NCBI GenBank assembly: GCA_963799485.1 | Contig: CAWCXJ010000004.1 | Coordinates: 181,470 to 245,469 of the forward strand | DNA from: an uncultured Trueperaceae bacterium | Lineage (GTDB): Bacteria; Deinococcota; Deinococci; Deinococcales; Trueperaceae | Direction: 5' to 3' | DNA: 64,000 nucleotides | Part shown: positions 8,195 through 57,828 of the stretch, in pieces | How the letters are laid out: each line of letters opens with the position of its first letter | Position numbering within the stretch: position 1 is the first letter of the stretch | Program-made: the position numbers and the translations under genes | The notes under the pieces: generated by a model | What the model saw: only the letters and a program-made list of their open reading frames with translations | What the model was told of the DNA's origin: nothing | Database searches by the model: none

Positions 8195-9001
8195 GTGGCT
8201 ATGCTCTCAGAAGAGAGGCGGCGATATCTACTGGGGCTCCTCAACCAGCAAGAAGCCCTCGAGACGTCCCTCATCGCCGCGCAGCTCGGGGTTTCGGAGA
8301 TGACCGTCCGCCGCGACCTGAGCGATCTCGAGCGGCGCGGCTTCGTGCGGCGCGTTCACGGCGGCGCGCAGCGCGTCCACGGGGCAAATTACGTGTCCGA
8401 AGCCAAACGCACCCCCGGCGTCACGCAGCAGATCGGCGCGGTTGCAGCTTTGCAGGTAAGCTCACACGAAACGATCTATCTGGACGCCGGCACCGTGTGC
8501 CTCGAGCTGGCGCGGGCGCTTAAACGCCGCGACCTCAAACTCAACATCTTAACGCACGCGGTCAATATCGCCGCCGAGCTGACCGGACATCCGGGGTTTA
8601 CGGTAATTCAGGTCGGCGGCGAACTCTATCCGGAGACCTTTGCGGCAACCGGCCCGGCGGCGCTTGCGACCATCCACCAGTTTTCTTTCGACCGGTTGTT
8701 TCTTACGGCGCAGGGTCTGCACCCCAAAGCCGGGGTGACGCACGGCAACCTGCTTGAGGTCGCCGTCAAAACAGCGGCCCTGAGCCGCGCCGGCTGGACG
8801 GCGCTGCTGCTCGACTCGGGCCGCTGGAACCGTCAGGCGCTGACGCGCGTGACCGACCCCGGCAAGTTGGACCTGCTCGTCAGCGACGCGTCGCTTCCCG
8901 CTGAAGCGCGGCGCTTTTTACGGGGTGTCAACGTCGCCGTACTCCCCGACGCCCCGCCAAAACCCGACCCGGCTGACGAAACGCTCGCCGAACAGGTATG
9001 A
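8195..9001 (+). CDS. DeoR/GlpR family transcriptional regulator
   Basis: GVSEMTVRRDL..L..RVHGGA HTH and IYLDAGT sensor domain. Confidence 0.92.
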   Translation: MAMLSEERRRYLLGLLNQQEALETSLIAAQLGVSEMTVRRDLSDLERRGFVRRVHGGAQRVHGANYVSEAKRTPGVTQQIGAVAALQVSSHETIYLDAGTVCLELARALKRRDLKLNILTHAVNIAAELTGHPGFTVIQVGGELYPETFAATGPAALATIHQFSFDRLFLTAQGLHPKAGVTHGNLLEVAVKTAALSRAGWTALLLDSGRWNRQALTRVTDPGKLDLLVSDASLPAEARRFLRGVNVAVLPDAPPKPDPADETLAEQV

Positions 9002-9113
9002 TCGGCGCAACTGTGAAGGGTGGGATTATGAACTGCAGACTGACGTGCGCGTGGGGCGCTGAGGGCTTGGTACCCGCCGGGGGTGTTGGACAGACGTTTT
9101 CAACTCGAGCCAA

Positions 9114-10559
9114 GTGGAGCTTCCGGTGCCTTTAACCATAGGCATCGATCTGGGTACGAGCGGTGTCCGCACGCTCGCCGTTAGTGAGACGGGCGCACTT
9201 ATCGCCGAGAGTACCCGCAGCTACCCGCTTTTGACCCCGCACCCCGGTTGGACGGAGCAGCGCCCCGAAGACTGGTTTGGGGAGACGGTCGCAGCCCTGC
9301 GTGAACTCGCCGCACAGCTTGGCGGACAAGAAATCGTCGCGCTCGGGCTTTCCGGGCAGATGCACGGGATGGTACCGCTAGACGCTCACGGTGAGGTCGT
9401 CCGGCCTGCGCTCTTATGGAACGACCAGCGTACCGGGAAGGGCGTCGCTGAACTCGAGGCCGCCGTACCCCGTAAAACGCTGGTCGCACGTACCGGCAAC
9501 CCGGCGATCACCGGGTTTCAGCTGCCTAAACTGCTCTGGTTGCGGCAAGAAGAACCCGACAACTTTGCTCGTACCCGCCACGTGCTATTGCCCAAAGATT
9601 ATCTGGGCTTCAAGCTTACCGGTGTGGTGGCGGCTGAACCCTCCGACGCTTCGGGAACGAACTGTTTTGAAATTGCCCAAAAGGTCTGGGACGCCGAGGT
9701 GTTGGGGGCGCTTAACCTGAGTACGGCGCTTTTTCCGGACCTCGTTTCATCCCGTGAGGTCGTCGGCACACTGACCAAAGAACTGTCTTCAGAGACCGGC
9801 TTACCGGAGGGCTTGCCCGTCGTCGCCGGGGCCGGGGACAACGCGGCGGCGGCGATAGGACTCGGTATCTCGAGTCGTACGCCCGGTACAGGCAGCGTCA
9901 GCCTCGGTACCTCCGGAGTCGTCTTTGCGCCGCTAGACGCGCCGACCCCCGACCCACAGGGGCGTGTTCACCTCTTTTGTCACGCCGACGGGGGCTACAA
10001 CCTCCTCGGGGTGACGCTCGCCGCTGCGGGCAGTCTTCAGTGGTACCGCGACACCTTCAGGCCGGGTGTGGGTTTTGACGCCCTTACCCGGGAGGCTGAA
10101 ACCTCCGAGCCGGGCGCGAACGGCGTCACTTTCAAACCCTACCTCGCCGGCGAGCGTACCCCTCACCTCGACCCCGATTTGCGCGGGTCGTGGACGGGTT
10201 TGAGTTTGGCGACGACCCAGGCCGACCTCGTGCGCTCGGTGCTCGAGGGTGTCGCCTTCAGCCTGCGCGACGCCCTCGACGTTATTACGCCGCTCGCGCC
10301 GCTCACCCAAGCTTTTACGACGGGAGGTGGTGCGCGCTCAGATATGTGGTTGCAACTTACCGCCGATGTTCTGGCGTTGCCGCTCATCCGCCCTAGTCAA
10401 AGTCAGGGCCCGGCCTACGGCGCGGCACTTTTGGCTTTGCAAGGGGTAGGTTACACGGATAAAGCAGCGGCGCTGGCGCGCCTCGAGCGCGACCGGACCT
10501 TTTCACCTGACGGGCGGGAGCACTACTACGACGCGCTGGGACGTTACCGTACCGCCTGA
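9114..10559 (+). CDS. xylB: Xylulokinase (FGGY kinase)
   Basis: [37 protein letters not shown]. Confidence 0.88.
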
Positions 10560-10620
10560 GCCAAATGTGTTTCCGGTGCAGGGTTCGGGTTGGGATGAGA
10601 TTCTCTAGATACACAAATTC

Positions 10621-10652
10621 GACGAGCGTGAAGTTTAGCGATCACGCTCGTC
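10621..10652. terminator. Hairpin between convergent xylB and the peptide gene
   Basis: GACGAGCGTGA-N10-TCACGCTCGTC, an 11-bp stem. Confidence 0.55.
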
Positions 10653-10749
10653 TGGAGTGCGGGTTTGGAGAGATACTCTCGAGGGTTCAGGTTTGATTTT
10701 GTTTACCTTGACTTTCCTTAAGGGGGCGCTGGTGTCAACAGGTGGTGAC

Positions 10750-10866
10750 TTACCTAGAAGATGATGCAGGTGTGACAACACCGGGACTTATAAGCCTAGA
10801 CCTTGCAAATCCGACACTACCGACGCTTAAGCAAATCATACCGATGATAAGAGCTTTCTTGAACAT
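10750..10866 (-). CDS. Small secreted pre-peptide (38 aa), candidate signalling peptide
   Basis: Hand translation MFKKALIIGMICLSVGSVGFARSRLISPGVVTPASSSR*. GAAGGAGGAGG SD just upstream of the ATG. Classic n/h/c signal ending GFA. Not in the ORF track. Confidence 0.8.
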   Translation of the reverse strand: MFKKALIIGMICLSVGSVGFARSRLISPGVVTPASSSR

Positions 10867-10891
10867 GATTCCTCCTCCTTCAACTGTCCCT

Positions 10892-10975
10892 ACTGTACAA
10901 AAGCCTTGTTGCCGCGGCGTTACAGCTTTTGACGTGCGCGTTGCAACAGCCTTGCATCACGCCAACGCTTACATT
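10892..10975. promoter_or_regulatory. Divergent promoters with paired direct repeats
   Basis: Minus strand: GCTGTAAC-N3-GCGGCAAC-N10-TACAGT. Plus strand: GTTGCAAC-N3-CTTGCATC-N11-TACATT. Confidence 0.55.
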
Positions 10976-10994
10976 TTGATAAGGAGGACTACGA

Positions 10995-11177
10995 ATGACC
11001 AAAAATGAAGCACGTGAAATTTTGGCTGAAACCTGGCGGTTCAGCCGCGTCGGTGAACTTATCGCCTTACGCGAAGTCGAGCTTATCGAAGCGGTGCGCG
11101 ACCACGAAACCGCGCGTTCAGCCGGGCCGTCTACGCCCCTGAACTACGCCCACCCGCAACCGCTGCGCTCGTCGTAA
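10995..11177 (+). CDS. Small hypothetical protein (60 aa)
   Basis: AAGGAGG SD with normal spacing. Helical N-terminal half. Confidence 0.7.
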   Translation: MTKNEAREILAETWRFSRVGELIALREVELIEAVRDHETARSAGPSTPLNYAHPQPLRSS

Positions 11178-11208
11178 GATTCCGTCCAGAGTTCTAGTTA
11201 CCGGGGTT

Positions 11209-13656
11209 CTAGTTATAGGTCGGGCGCAGTTCCTGAGTTACTCTGTGGAGCTGCGCCCTTACGAGCGGCAGCCGCACATCGCCGGTAGGGAGCGCGGCGT
11301 GTGTGGCCTGCCACAACTCGAGGTCGTCTTTAAGCGTTTCGGCAAGTGGCAACAGCGCCTCGGCGTCGCCGGAATGAAGGGCGCTCTGCCGTAACCGCTC
11401 TTCGAGATAAAGCCGTGCCTCACGGACGCCGGGAGCGTCGCTCGCTTCGAGGAGCGGCCCCCGGTAAAGCTCGAGCGCCGCTCTTACGTCGCCCGTTGCA
11501 ATCGCCGCCTCGCAGTCGCCTGCATCGAAGGTAAACGGCACGGTGATACGGTACGGCTCAGGATGTGCGCTGATCGGCACAAGCACCCGCAACCGTGAAA
11601 CTGCTGAGCGCAGCGCCACGAGCGTCGTATCCTCGTCGTCGTAAAGGCAGCTGTGTAAAACTTCGGGAGTCAACCCTTGGGGGTGCAGGGCGAGCAGCAC
11701 GAGGGTTTCCAGCGCCCGTTCGCTGAGCGCGAGGCGCTTGTCGTTGAACCATACTTCCGCCCGCCCCAAAACCTTGATGTGTAGCGGCACATGCTGAGCC
11801 GCGAGTGTACTCCAAACGCTTGCGAACTCGGTCTCAGGGCCACAAAAGAGCCGGAAGCCGACAGGCGAAAGTGCCTTGAGCGATTCTTGCAACGTCGCGC
11901 TGAGTTCACTAAAACGTAGCGCGCCGGTCTTGAGTAGGTGCAGCGCTGCCATGATTCGGAACGACGCCTCGATGTCCGGAGCCGCGAGCACTCTCATCAG
12001 GTAACTGCGCGCCGCCTTGGGGTTCTGAACTGCGTAAACCATCCCGAGCGCCAGGAACGCCGGGAGCGTGACGAAATCGTCCTCACCGGTCGTCAGGGTT
12101 ACGGCGTACTGCGCCTTGGCGAGCGCTTCGTCTACTTTTCCTCGCTCGAGCAAAATCCGTACCAGCGGTACAGTCGCACCACCTATCAGCCAGCGCGGGC
12201 TACGCTCGAGGTTTTCGGCAGCCAGCTTTTCTGCTTCCCTCAAATTGCCCAAGACAAGTTCGAGATTTGCCAGCGTAGTACGAATATAGGTTGCTACACT
12301 GAGTTCTGCGGAATCAGCGGCAGCTTTAGCTTCTAAAAGAATTTCGTGTAACCCGTTGATCTGCCCCGCTATGATGTGAGAGCTTGCATAGAAGTAAAGA
12401 AGATGTAGCCGCGCTGTGCCGTCCTGAACCCTCTTTTTTTCAAAAGTCTGGAGCGCCCAATCACTCCAGTGGGCTGCCTCCTCGAATTTTCCCAAATAGT
12501 TGAGGCTTTCTGCAAGCGCCCCAGCATTGCGTGTAACCTCATAGGGGCGACCAACTGTTTCAGCAAGCTTGACACTCTGTTGCAAGATTGTTGCGCCTAC
12601 TTTTCCGTCTATGTGCAACCGACCAAGTTGATAAAGTGTAAGCGGTGTCGTCATTGCTGCTGCTGCGCGTTGGGCTTGGGCGAAACTCTCTTCTGGGTCG
12701 GGAAGCATACCCGCATAGCGGGCGCGCAGTTCCGGCGCTTCGTTGTCTTCCAAATAGGCTTCGATAGCAGGCAGTATATGGCTGTAGTCCGACTGACTAA
12801 AGCCGGCGACCAGCCGCCACTCGAGCACCTTTTCGCCGCCTTGATAGCGGTCGTCGAGGCTTTCGAGCAGCAAGTGCAGCCGTCCGAGTAACCCTTGCTC
12901 CAGGTACACTGGCCCGGCCTCACCGATGAGTTCGGAAACCTGTTCGGGTACACTCATAACGGCAAGCTCGAGCGCCTCGATATGGCGACCGAGTTTTTGC
13001 AACACCTCGAGCAAAACACCCGGCGCTACCAGCGCTTCGTTGCCCGGTGCGGTGAGTGGGCCCTGCGCCGAGGGAACGTGCGGCAACGGTATCCCGCGGA
13101 GGCGGCAGACGCTGTTCATGAAGGTCAGGTACGCACCCCCCGAAGAGCGCCATAAGGTGCGCTTTTCGTCTTCGCTGAGAAAATGACCTGCCAGGAGTTC
13201 GGCTTCGTCCGGGGTGAGCGCGAGCTCCTCGCGGCGGAGGTGCAACCCAGCAAAGGTCGCGTCCGTGCTGTTCGTCACCAAGATAGGCTTCGCGCCTACC
13301 TCGGCAAGCTCGAGTAACGAATCACGAAAAAGGGGGGTGTAGTCGGCGTTGGTACAAGCAATCGTCATGCCGCCGAGCAGGGGCAGCCGTTTTCGCAAAA
13401 CCTCGATACTGTAGCTAAAGGGCAGTGCGTGAGGTAAGAAGTTGGCCTCGAGCGCTGTATTTACCGCGTCTGCCAGGCGGTTGCCGATAGCCACCGCGTC
13501 GCTTGCCTCGGTAGGGGTGAGTTGCAACCAGGCGAGCCTTTGGGTATGACTGAGCGCCTCGAGCAAAAAGGGCGCGCCGTAGGCCTCGCCCCCTTCGATT
13601 AAAACAGGGCCGGGATGGGCGCGAAGTTTCGCTAATAATCTCTGAGTCCAGATCAC
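11209..13656 (-). CDS. Large MalT/STAND-like transcriptional regulator (degenerate NTPase, TPR-like, wHTH, BTAD)
   Basis: N-terminal VLIEGGEAYG and AWLQLT..D..L, resembling MalT with a degenerate P-loop. Central Ala/Leu helical repeats. C-terminal IKVLG..LVLLALHPQG..LRSAVSRLR..ALELYRGPLL is typical of wHTH-BTAD. Confidence 0.75.
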   Translation of the reverse strand: MIWTQRLLAKLRAHPGPVLIEGGEAYGAPFLLEALSHTQRLAWLQLTPTEASDAVAIGNRLADAVNTALEANFLPHALPFSYSIEVLRKRLPLLGGMTIACTNADYTPLFRDSLLELAEVGAKPILVTNSTDATFAGLHLRREELALTPDEAELLAGHFLSEDEKRTLWRSSGGAYLTFMNSVCRLRGIPLPHVPSAQGPLTAPGNEALVAPGVLLEVLQKLGRHIEALELAVMSVPEQVSELIGEAGPVYLEQGLLGRLHLLLESLDDRYQGGEKVLEWRLVAGFSQSDYSHILPAIEAYLEDNEAPELRARYAGMLPDPEESFAQAQRAAAAMTTPLTLYQLGRLHIDGKVGATILQQSVKLAETVGRPYEVTRNAGALAESLNYLGKFEEAAHWSDWALQTFEKKRVQDGTARLHLLYFYASSHIIAGQINGLHEILLEAKAAADSAELSVATYIRTTLANLELVLGNLREAEKLAAENLERSPRWLIGGATVPLVRILLERGKVDEALAKAQYAVTLTTGEDDFVTLPAFLALGMVYAVQNPKAARSYLMRVLAAPDIEASFRIMAALHLLKTGALRFSELSATLQESLKALSPVGFRLFCGPETEFASVWSTLAAQHVPLHIKVLGRAEVWFNDKRLALSERALETLVLLALHPQGLTPEVLHSCLYDDEDTTLVALRSAVSRLRVLVPISAHPEPYRITVPFTFDAGDCEAAIATGDVRAALELYRGPLLEASDAPGVREARLYLEERLRQSALHSGDAEALLPLAETLKDDLELWQATHAALPTGDVRLPLVRAQLHRVTQELRPTYN

Positions 13657-13832: not shown

Positions 13833-14906
13833 TTACGCCGCGAGCCGGTCACGGCCCGCTTGTTTGGCGCGGTACAACGCGCGGTCGGCTCTGGCGATCA
13901 GCGTTTCGGGGGTGTCGCCGGGGCGGTAAACGCTAACGCCGATAGAAACGGTGACGAGGTGTTCGCCGGCGACAGGGTCGGCGCGAACGGCGTAAAGAAG
14001 TCGTTCACCGAGTTGCTGCGCCCCATAGAGTTCCGTTTGCGGCGCGACCACGACAAATTCTTCGCCTCCCCAGCGGCCTAAGGTGTTCCCGGCCCGGAGT
14101 TCGCCCCGCAAACGGCGGGCGATTTCCCGCAGCACCTTGTCTCCGGTGGGATGACCAAACCGGTCGTTGAGGCGCTTGAAATGGTCGATGTCGATGACGA
14201 GCGCGGCGCAGGGCGTTCCGTTCCGGCTCGCCTGGGCAATCGCGGTGTCGAGGACGGTCTCGAGCTGACGCCGGTTGGGTAAATCGGTCAAAAAGTCGTG
14301 GTTGGCCAACCGCTGAAACCAAGCCGCGTCCTGACGTACCTGCGTGAGTTCGCCGTCGATCCACATCGAGGCGCTGACGAAAGAGAGTAGAAGCGCGTGA
14401 GCTACGGCAAAGGTAGCTGCGAAGACGAGCCCGTCGAAAAGGTTCGGGCCGCCTAGCGTCATCAGGGCGTGCGGCAGGTTGAGGAGCGAAAAAACGAGAA
14501 GCACGGTGCCTGCTTGTAATAGCGCCTGCGGCCCCGGCAGACGGTTAAAAAACTGAACGTAAAGTGCAGGTAAAAGGAGCACGCTGGCGACGATAAGCTG
14601 CTGCGCCAGCCGTGACGGGTAGGCGAAGTAAAACGCGTAAACCCAGCCGACGAGCAGTAGGGTGAGATACAAGTACGGCGCGGCGACGAGCAACACCCGC
14701 TGCCGTTTGCGCTTGCTAAAGAGCGTAATAAGGTCAAAGACGACGACCAAAAAGAGGGTGAGGTTGATGCCGCTCACGCCTACCCGCGCGAACTCGAGCA
14801 CAGCGCCCACACTACCGAGTACGAGCGTGCCCCAGACGAGCGCAGTTTGTGACCAACGCGGATAGTTCTGCGGCTTTTCTGAAGGAGAGTCGGATAGCGT
14901 CGTCAT
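13833..14906 (-). CDS. Membrane-bound diguanylate cyclase
   Basis: About 6 hydrophobic segments, then DFLTDLPNRR, DIDHFKRLND.FGH..GD and RWGGEEF. Start placed at MTTLSD. Confidence 0.9.
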   Translation of the reverse strand: MTTLSDSPSEKPQNYPRWSQTALVWGTLVLGSVGAVLEFARVGVSGINLTLFLVVVFDLITLFSKRKRQRVLLVAAPYLYLTLLLVGWVYAFYFAYPSRLAQQLIVASVLLLPALYVQFFNRLPGPQALLQAGTVLLVFSLLNLPHALMTLGGPNLFDGLVFAATFAVAHALLLSFVSASMWIDGELTQVRQDAAWFQRLANHDFLTDLPNRRQLETVLDTAIAQASRNGTPCAALVIDIDHFKRLNDRFGHPTGDKVLREIARRLRGELRAGNTLGRWGGEEFVVVAPQTELYGAQQLGERLLYAVRADPVAGEHLVTVSIGVSVYRPGDTPETLIARADRALYRAKQAGRDRLAA

Positions 14907-15305
14907 AAAGAGGAGAACACAACGTCTTTTGGAGTATACCTGCCTGACGTCCACACGCACCCGACATTGAGGCTTCGTAAAGCTACCTTTTGCAACTTGC
15001 TGAAGTCGCATGTTTGGCTTACCAATACCCTATATTCAGCACGGAACAAGCGGAAACCTGGTAACCTTCGCCTGGCGCAGCCCGATGTATACCCCTGAAT
15101 AAATCCGCCTCAAGCGATGGCTTGAACGCCCTGGCTACTGCTGCTGTCTGTTAGTTTATAGCTCAAAAAGTCTAAACAAACAAAAACTAACAACAAAATC
15201 CATAAATTGTCCACTGCTTGCCGTTTACTTCTTTCGGCGTCCATAGTATCCTCTTGCATATTACGTCGTTAGGACGTCACGGAAATGACGTCATGAAAGG
15301 AACTT

Positions 15306-57609: not shown

Positions 57610-57828
57610 GTGACAACGATGAATTCACGAAAACTACGACTTTTCATGATGATACTGGTCACGGTGCTGCTCGGCGCTGTCTGGGCACACGGCGACGAAG
57701 ACGGCAACCCGACCGTTTGGGTTGCCAACGGTACGAACGGCACCTTGAGCGTCGTCGACCGCGTTACGGGCGAAGAGCTGGCGCGCGTATCGGCGGGGCG
57801 CAACCCTCACGTCCTGAGTGTGAGCTAG
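57610..57828 (+). pseudogene. Truncated YVTN/YncE beta-propeller protein
   Basis: Signal VWA|HG, one blade (VWVAN..NGTLSVVD..TGE....G.NPH), then a stop. Confidence 0.65.

Follow-up and report, generated by a model that had tools for sequence, protein, structure and literature searches.

A 38-codon gene for a predicted secreted peptide beside a STAND-like/TPR regulator in Trueperaceae: a candidate peptide-receptor circuit in the Deinococcota

Does a 38-codon open reading frame (ORF) near the gene of a large regulator encode that regulator's ligand? The question is raised by a locus in the window, a 64,000-nucleotide stretch of DNA from an uncultured Trueperaceae bacterium (GenBank assembly GCA_963799485.1, contig CAWCXJ010000004.1, positions 181,470 to 245,469 of the forward strand). 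The initial annotation had picked out this micro-ORF, here called pep, with its strong Shine-Dalgarno (SD) sequence, about 340 bp downstream of and co-oriented with the gene of an 815-aa regulator, had proposed that the two form a peptide-receptor module on a different scaffold from those of the Firmicutes, and had named the Deinococcota as the probable phylum of the host. The ORF and its SD are present as quoted (Table 1), the host is a Truepera-like member of the Trueperaceae and thus of the Deinococcota, and 342 bp separate the regulator's end from the pep ATG on the same strand. The arrangement is not the plain tandem that had been described, however, as a gene for a 60-aa protein (orf60) lies between the two, divergent from pep and convergent with the regulator gene (regulator → ← orf60, pep →); this gene, the promoter repeats and the cyclic di-GMP (c-di-GMP) neighbours described below were all missing from that account. 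The cassette resembles peptide-signalling circuits whose descriptions have until now come from Firmicutes alone, and the reading favoured here, with a probability of roughly 0.55, is that it constitutes an autoregulated, autoinducing peptide-receptor circuit on a scaffold combining STAND-like, tetratricopeptide repeat (TPR) and Streptomyces antibiotic regulatory protein (SARP) features. The basis is computational throughout, comprising the genes, their conservation, the coding signature, the promoter repeats, the domain folds and the co-fold of a relative's regulator and peptide.

The N-terminus of pep can be read directly as a Sec-type signal peptide, with a positively charged n-region (MFKK), a run of 16 uncharged residues (ALIIGMICLSVGSVGF) and G-F-A at positions -3 to -1, and the same pattern is seen in the peptides of relatives. 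A lipoprotein was considered and ruled out, as there is no lipobox before Cys12, which is preceded by G-M-I, and the Cys is absent in two orthologues (L006 and L007). The ORF does not occur in a collection of 15 billion proteins that contains both the regulator and the 60-aa protein, and is therefore unannotated; NCBIfam returned no match for pep or orf60, and an Rfam scan of 10400..11400 gave only a miRNA model with an E-value of 0.45, so that no known RNA explains the region. In the window and in its near kin, a group comprising the genus and one sister genus, the next gene past pep is convergent. A leader peptide or attenuator is ruled out for the window, since no gene lies downstream of pep for it to control. 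The hairpin in this interval is a possible terminator common to pep and the convergent xylulokinase gene; it was missed by a consensus promoter/terminator scan, which found no sigma-70-like site and no terminator near pep. On the other side, pep and orf60 diverge from a common region of 128 bp (10867..10994), whose G+C content is 0.465-0.48 as against about 0.62-0.68 in the flanking genes.

Conservation was assessed in 121 regulator loci, of which 84 are unique (7 from near kin, 57 from other Trueperaceae and 20 from other families of the phylum); the 57 include L008, from genome G090, which is flagged as unpublished and forms a row of alignment A2. A loose filter, calling for an SD and a signal-peptide-like ORF of 25-80 aa at most 900 bp from the regulator gene, finds such a micro-ORF in all 7 near-kin loci, in 45 of the 57 other Trueperaceae loci and in 12 of the 20 loci from other families, bearing out the earlier expectation that regulator homologues would be accompanied by micro-ORFs with signal peptides. 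Under relaxed criteria L012, L095 and L111, where the ORF is partly masked, can be added, raising the Trueperaceae count to 48 of 57, and 4 of the remaining 9 loci lack flanking DNA (L016, L092, L113 and L120). Across the window's 3.66-Mb genome the loose filter gives 233 matches, or 0.064 per kb, and its strict version 14; with so low a background, matches that recur at the same position in locus after locus are not due to chance. The divergent pep-orf60 pair is kept as a unit, although its position relative to the regulator gene flips between two layouts.

The pattern of substitution is that of a translated sequence. In the three closest orthologue pairs, synonymous and non-synonymous changes stand at 5:0, 7:2 and 9:2 over codons 1-22, and at 3:10, 6:8 and 5:6 over the mature part. 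In a metagenomic relative whose regulator is 82% identical, the 21-aa signal peptide is unchanged and the mature part is different; a metagenome scan yielded a single further close locus (L130). The micro-ORF pep is a real gene, and part of a conserved Trueperaceae trio made up of the regulator, the 60-aa protein and the secreted mini-peptide.

Variable as the mature parts are, they share a common core of the form [polar]-D-x-G or P-G. Precursors in the main Trueperaceae group are 46-50 aa long and end in ...A-[DGQ]-[ST]-x-x-Q/P-x-G-x-x-D-[AVP]-G, and those of the near-kin group, to which the window belongs, have an internal core, [S/D/N]-P-G, and end in a further 10 or so residues that form a tail (x-[VI]-x-P-x-S-S-x-x). 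Three relatives encode multi-copy precursors (Table 1), with two tandem copies of the mature unit in L087 and L090 and four exact copies of a 12-residue unit, QTSNQPGEYDVG, in L095. These copies put the mature unit at about 12 aa, and the precursor sequences argue for the release of units of about that length ending in D-x-G.

The proposed receptor is widespread in the family, with homologues in 108 of 127 other Trueperaceae genomes, and its nearest named relatives are found in Truepera sp. (81% identity) and T. radiovictrix (58%), the latter's locus (L005) having the near-kin layout. The initial annotation had described the scaffold as a degenerate MalT-like NTPase followed by a TPR-like region and a winged helix-turn-helix (wHTH) with a BTAD domain, an order that proves largely right. 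At the P-loop position of the N-terminal domain stands GGEAYGAPF, which lacks the Lys and Thr of the Walker A motif (GxxxxGK[ST]); G27 and P29 are invariant in 27 homologues. Lacking these residues, the regulator is unlikely to bind ATP. Foldseek searches with the AlphaFold2 (AF2) model return a list dominated by TPR proteins, headed by the STAND-TPR protein 6mfv (E 3e-7, with a low TM score owing to domain arrangement), and weak Pfam TPR matches occur among the 27 family members (TPR_12 in 16, TPR_MalT in 8, best E 1.5e-8). At the other end, a profile of 30 C-terminal regions matches RstA (E 0.0014) and PhoB-family proteins, OmpR, BaeR and CpxR (E 0.006-0.018), 20 of its 22 matches being winged helices of the OmpR/PhoB type; Pfam searches gave no LuxR/GerE match, the wHTH at residues 620-710 being the only match of a DNA-binding type. 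The BTAD part of the earlier description stands less firmly, the Pfam model scoring 16.6 bits against a cut-off of 22.1 on the window's regulator and matching 1 of 27 members (E 0.0023); as it also matches 13 of 14 control genomes, it is unspecific. Single-sequence searches of NCBIfam and the PDB with the regulator returned nothing useful. Many homologues carry a precomputed Pfam assignment, PF27103, in a protein database, and a curated domain name may therefore already exist. Within the regulator gene, G+C content dips to 0.475-0.49 at 12200..12500, in the TPR part, compared with about 0.62 elsewhere.

To our knowledge, the cytoplasmic sensing of secreted, gene-encoded peptides by TPR proteins is considered peculiar to Firmicutes and their phages. 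As in the RRNPP(A) systems found there (Rap-Phr, PlcR-PapR, NprR-NprX, Rgg-SHP and AimR-AimP), the gene of a cytoplasmic TPR-type receptor, here a predicted one, stands next to that of a short pro-peptide with an export signal, the mature sequences diverge between close relatives, and some pro-peptides are multi-copy; the Opp-type importer implicated there may have its counterpart in an SBP_bac_5 gene and a permease gene that lie beside the regulator gene in a subgroup of loci. The differences lie in the receptor, in the host phylum and in the additional 60-aa gene: the cassette regulator has neither an N-terminal HTH nor a Rap-type domain, its residues 1-200 forming instead an alpha/beta domain, degenerate and STAND-like, that precedes the TPR, and its C-terminus consists of an OmpR-type winged helix with a BTAD-like tail. 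No RRNPP receptor is among the 5 and 18 PDB sequence matches or the 50 Foldseek matches listed for the whole regulator. In the portions of the literature on Deinococcota (Deinococcus, Truepera, Thermus) that were accessible, no description of such a system was found.

Two further comparisons place the scaffold more closely. The large SARP AfsR of Streptomyces coelicolor likewise combines an OmpR-type wHTH, BTAD-like helices, a NOD/STAND-like domain and TPRs, and its partner AfsS is, like the orf60 product, a small cytoplasmic protein of about 60 aa encoded by an adjacent gene; according to one account, AfsR activates that gene, and no peptide ligand of AfsR is known (PMC10936776). The order is permuted, however, the SARP part being C-terminal in the cassette regulator and N-terminal in AfsR; moreover, the cassette regulator lacks the Walker A lysine and its BTAD falls below the Pfam cut-off, the orf60 product resembles no named family, and the cassette includes a gene for a secreted peptide that is predicted to bind the TPR. 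With MalT and the LAL regulators it shares the sequence of an N-terminal nucleotide-binding-like domain, a TPR-like sensor and a C-terminal DNA-binding domain, along with weak TPR_MalT matches and the (here predicted) sensing of a ligand by the repeat domain. It differs from them in its OmpR-type wHTH, where they have a LuxR-type HTH, in its degenerate P-loop and in the nature of the ligand, a sugar there and a gene-encoded peptide as proposed here.

The likeness to AfsR extends to the promoters. SARP target promoters, as the same source describes them, carry direct repeats spaced by 11 or 22 bp, with 8 bp between the 3′ repeat and the -10, and have a poor -35 (PMC10936776); by sequence pattern, repeats in an 11-bp register close to the -10 are found at both putative divergent promoters of the window, which, like those of AfsR, have no evident -35. 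Promoters without a -35, where sigma-70 consensus matches are absent, are as expected for activator-dependent promoters. In the main group, TGRAGCG-N4-TGRAGCG precedes pep, in the direction of pep, in 41 of 44 loci of divergent layout, followed after 10 nt by TAnnnT; near kin have a different heptamer, with a GYAAC-N6-GCAAC-type pair and then TAnnnT in all 7 loci, and the pep-side spacer is 9-10 nt overall. A mirrored pair pointing towards orf60 follows the strict pattern in 13 of 26 loci and a looser one in the rest. Operon layout is combined with GYAAC-type heptamers in a single locus, L008, on which that statement rests. The heptamer sequence switches along with the regulator clade, a co-change that would be expected of a cognate site and equally of shared ancestry. 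Genome-wide, the strict form of the window's own promoter pattern has 2 matches in 3.66 Mb, both within the cassette; since the pattern was derived from these two sites, the search is circular and provides no evidence about the regulon.

Binding of peptide to regulator was approached by co-folding and by co-variation. For the relative L087, the regulator and its own two-copy pro-peptide (precursor residues 24-69), both supplied as alignments, give a co-fold score of 0.61, compared with 0.00-0.01 for three controls, and so pass the control comparison; among solved complexes 116 of 157 come up to this mark, and among mismatched pairs 2 of 215, counts that hold only roughly since our own alignments were used. 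Runs agree in at least 52% of contacts, and the partner has a predicted local distance difference test (pLDDT) of at least 40. Contacts are confined to the last 14 peptide residues, corresponding to one unit, which lie in the TPR groove, and the tightest join I-D-V-G-COOH to R318, G321, Q347, R350 and R380. Conservation of all five is 91-100% across 33 homologues, and they correspond to R313, G316, Q343, R346 and R376 of the window's regulator, while the contact residues facing the variable part of the peptide are variable themselves. The model supports, but does not show, binding of the L087 peptide to the L087 regulator. Over 40 regulator-peptide pairs, a partial Mantel test gives r = 0.40 between peptide and interface given the rest of the TPR, a value reached in 0 of 2000 permutations, and 0.22 for the reverse partial, a co-variation that is confounded by kinship and by the faster change of exposed residues. 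The co-variation and co-fold expected by the initial annotation are therefore both present in this qualified form and, together with the homologue survey, lend support to its proposal of a peptide-receptor module on a different scaffold.

Hidden Markov model (HMM) searches find orf60-like genes in 59 of the 64 unique Trueperaceae loci and in none of the 20 from other families; the 63 database relatives are all unnamed or "hypothetical" and without a Pfam domain. For the orf60 product AF2 gives a modest alpha-beta-beta-alpha model whose tail is disordered (pLDDT 67), and Pfam, NCBIfam and the ESM Atlas gave no assignment, the best match of a wide fold search having a Z-score of 3.1 (tails of wHTH proteins). 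By analogy, it may be a small AfsS-like effector. In 49 of 57 main-group loci the gene directly after pep, co-oriented with it and separated from it by about 100 nt, encodes an EAL domain, and a GGDEF gene stands before the regulator gene in 4 of 7 near-kin loci, namely the window and 3 others. In 10 of the 57 main-group loci, the regulator gene is directly followed by an SBP_bac_5 gene, which among named proteins comes nearest to GsiB, NikA, DppA and OppA, in each case with a score below the cut-off, and an OppB-type permease gene comes next in the 2 loci whose flank extends that far (L089 and L106).

In the circuit that these elements suggest, the 38-aa product would be exported by the Sec pathway, lose its signal peptide and perhaps be trimmed further. 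The short peptide would then return to the cytoplasm, in relatives probably by way of an adjacent family-5 (Opp/Dpp-type) ATP-binding cassette importer, and bind the concave face of the TPR superhelix. The C-terminal OmpR-type winged helix and BTAD-like tail would bind the two heptamers 11 bp apart, taking the place of the -35 at both promoters and switching on pep and orf60, with the peptide presumably acting as an activator rather than an inhibitor. In most relatives, the regulator gene itself and the EAL phosphodiesterase gene would also be switched on, giving positive feedback and an output through c-di-GMP. A wider proposal, put forward tentatively and at slightly less than even odds, is that the Deinococcota possess their own peptide-pheromone family, invented apart from RRNPP, in which a Sec-exported single- or multi-copy mini-peptide, modified by radical-SAM enzymes in some lineages, is sensed in the cytoplasm by a STAND-derived TPR receptor bearing a SARP-type module, together with self-feedback, c-di-GMP wiring (through the EAL gene that follows pep and the GGDEF gene upstream of the regulator), an AfsS-like 60-aa second output and pherotypes within Truepera set by fast-diverging mature peptides.

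Several observations, besides the confounding of the Mantel test, weigh against the circuit. No peptide ORF is present in 5 Trueperaceae loci despite full flanks (L026, L029, L054, L102 and L109), and the strict-pattern search leaves no known output gene in this genome except orf60. The co-folded pair comes from a relative whose regulator is 38% identical to the window's rather than from the window itself. Near-kin regulators differ at contact positions (R319 to Y, R388 to S and N425 to Y, in L087 numbering), and the window's peptide, one of the derived class with a C-terminal tail, has S where most family members have D; given this substitution, the tail class and the changed contact positions, the binding mode in the window may differ. 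Deinococcota also have an outer membrane-like layer, and a Sec-exported peptide may not leave the periplasm.

The remaining counter-evidence comes from elsewhere in the phylum. In its other families, where regulator homologues share 28-39% identity with the window's, and in the Trueperaceae locus L009, the micro-ORF is convergent with the regulator gene and lies just past its end. In 11 of the 20 other-family loci, and likewise in L009, it stands directly after a radical-SAM/SPASM gene resembling the maturases of ribosomally synthesized and post-translationally modified peptides (RiPPs), and the tails of the other-family peptides often have two Cys. The radical-SAM/SPASM gene comes closest to TIGR04463, scoring 172-198 bits where the cut-off is 525; as the maturase family is below every NCBIfam cut-off, the sequences may represent an undescribed RiPP class. 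Beside other regulator homologues lie a B12-radical-SAM RiPP C-methyltransferase gene (TIGR03975, above cut-off; L055, 345..1790, + strand) and a RamC-like gene for a class III/IV lanthipeptide synthetase (L059, 2..1201, - strand). Such loci resemble the Rgg/SHP-controlled RaS-RiPP operons of streptococci in that the regulator adjoins a radical-SAM/SPASM maturase and a short peptide gene; they differ in that the regulator is unrelated to Rgg and the peptides have Sec-type signal peptides, and the window and almost all Trueperaceae loci are without a maturase. With a maturase beside the peptide gene in so many other-family loci, the ancestral role of the peptide may have been that of a modified exported product and not that of a signal.

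A separate tally of gene order records the radical-SAM/SPASM gene as convergent with the regulator homologue in L056, L057, L058, L061, L065, L066, L071-L074 and the Trueperaceae paralogue L009, with the micro-ORF, often with two Cys, directly after it except in L065, L066 and L071.

In the strongest alternative, the regulator would be a cluster-situated, SARP-like activator of pep and orf60 that answers to another cue, and the peptide would be its product (bacteriocin-like, envelope-active or of RiPP type) rather than its ligand. The SARP-type repeats at both promoters, the RiPP enzymes just described and the precedent of AfsR all fit such an arrangement. Yet the window's genome contains no maturase orthologue, only a generic radical-SAM core match (35% identity over 136 aa), and the mature parts, 12-20 aa long and rich in Gly, Ser and Asp, are as a rule neither amphipathic nor cationic. 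Moreover, in the co-fold, whose controls score 0.00-0.01, invariant arginines form the pocket that receives the conserved end of the peptide, peptide divergence follows the predicted interface, and 10 of 57 loci have an adjacent importer of the peptide type. On balance, this product role appears unlikely.

More doubtful still is a ligand that acts within the cell producing it, either as an unexported precursor that senses secretion or translation or as a peptide cycling through the cell's own periplasm. The co-fold cannot separate precursor from mature peptide, the outer envelope of Deinococcota may retain periplasmic peptides, and there is no adjacent importer in the window or in 47 of 57 relatives, all of which would suit a cell-autonomous ligand. 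Against it, the precursors with 2 and 4 units make sense if units are released but not if the precursor stays tethered, purifying selection on the signal peptide is strong, and mature parts diversify fast among close kin, in the manner of pherotypes. An origin of pep by chance, or a role purely in cis as the leader of a downstream gene, with no functional exported peptide in either case, is barely credible: pep is short and unannotated, and a leader role is conceivable in the many relatives with an EAL gene downstream, but 50 or more loci keep the signal-peptide pattern and a strong SD, codon changes are dominated by synonymous ones, mature units are repeated, and pep has no co-oriented gene after it in the window or its near kin.

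At 8195..10559, genes for a DeoR-family regulator and an FGGY carbohydrate kinase (xylulokinase-like), both of them unremarkable neighbours, are convergent with pep. The genome-wide filter also picked up an ORF of 49 aa (15110..15259, - strand) that encodes a hydrophobic segment and has an SD-like sequence; it occupies an AT-rich gap (G+C 0.425-0.46) separating the GGDEF gene from that of a ROK-family regulator. Farther away, a signal-peptide-like ORF of 69 aa at about 57618..57828 (+ strand) recurs, identical along with its upstream sequence, at about 2057..2267 of contig C8 of the same genome, and is a repeated segment or an assembly duplicate.

Table 1. Features of the cassette and its relatives. 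Coordinates are those of the window, except for the multi-copy precursors, which are numbered within their own loci.
Feature	Coordinates	Strand	Basis or remark
Micro-ORF pep, 38 aa	10750..10866	-	ORF reading; orthologues L002, L003, L004, L005, L006, L007, L130
pep Sec-type signal peptide, codons 1-21	10804..10866	-	Direct reading of sequence
pep predicted exported part, codons 22-38, RSRLISPGVVTPASSSR	10753..10803	-	Direct reading of sequence
pep Shine-Dalgarno, GGAGGAGG	10871..10878	-	4 nt before ATG
Hairpin, 11-bp stem and 10-nt loop, about -20 kcal/mol, then GAATTTGTGT	10621..10652	-	Own folding
Putative activator-dependent pep promoter: TGTAACG-N4-GGCAACA (10924..10907), 9 nt, TACAGT (10897..10892)	10892..10924	-	
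Putative activator-dependent orf60 promoter: GCAAC-N6-GCATC (10943..10958), 11 nt, TACATT (10970..10975)	10943..10975	+	
orf60, 60-aa cytoplasmic protein, orphan family	10995..11177	+	SD AAGGAGG at 10981..10987; HMM
Regulator, 815 aa	11209..13656	-	AF2 model, pLDDT 90.1, predicted TM score (pTM) 0.83
Regulator aa 1-200, alpha/beta STAND-like domain, degenerate P-loop	13057..13656	-	AF2 secondary structure, invariant G27/P29, Foldseek
Regulator aa 205-618, TPR-like superhelix with predicted peptide groove (R313, G316, Q343, R346, R376)	11803..13044	-	
Regulator aa 620-710, OmpR/PhoB-type winged helix-turn-helix, beta-beta-H-H-H-hairpin	11527..11799	-	Profile and AF2 model
Regulator aa 711-810, helical BTAD-like tail	11227..11526	-	Sub-threshold Pfam BTAD at 11320..11523
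GGDEF diguanylate cyclase gene, directly upstream of regulator, same strand	13833..15011	-	Pfam GGDEF, E 2.5e-46
Multi-copy precursors (regulator-forward orientation)	L095 1734..1988; L087 1828..2034; L090 1891..2097	-	

Should the peptide-receptor circuit prove true, logic of the RRNPP kind would have arisen on an unrelated scaffold in a deep-branching, diderm-like phylum, and a class of peptide ligands would be added for the large SARP/STAND regulators, few of which have a known TPR ligand. Peptide signalling would also be tied to c-di-GMP in extremophiles, and the cultivable genus Truepera would offer a simple, testable pair, consisting of the regulator and a peptide of 12-17 aa with two defined promoters. 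The cassette is also a case in which the key part of a conserved unit is an unannotated gene of 38 codons.

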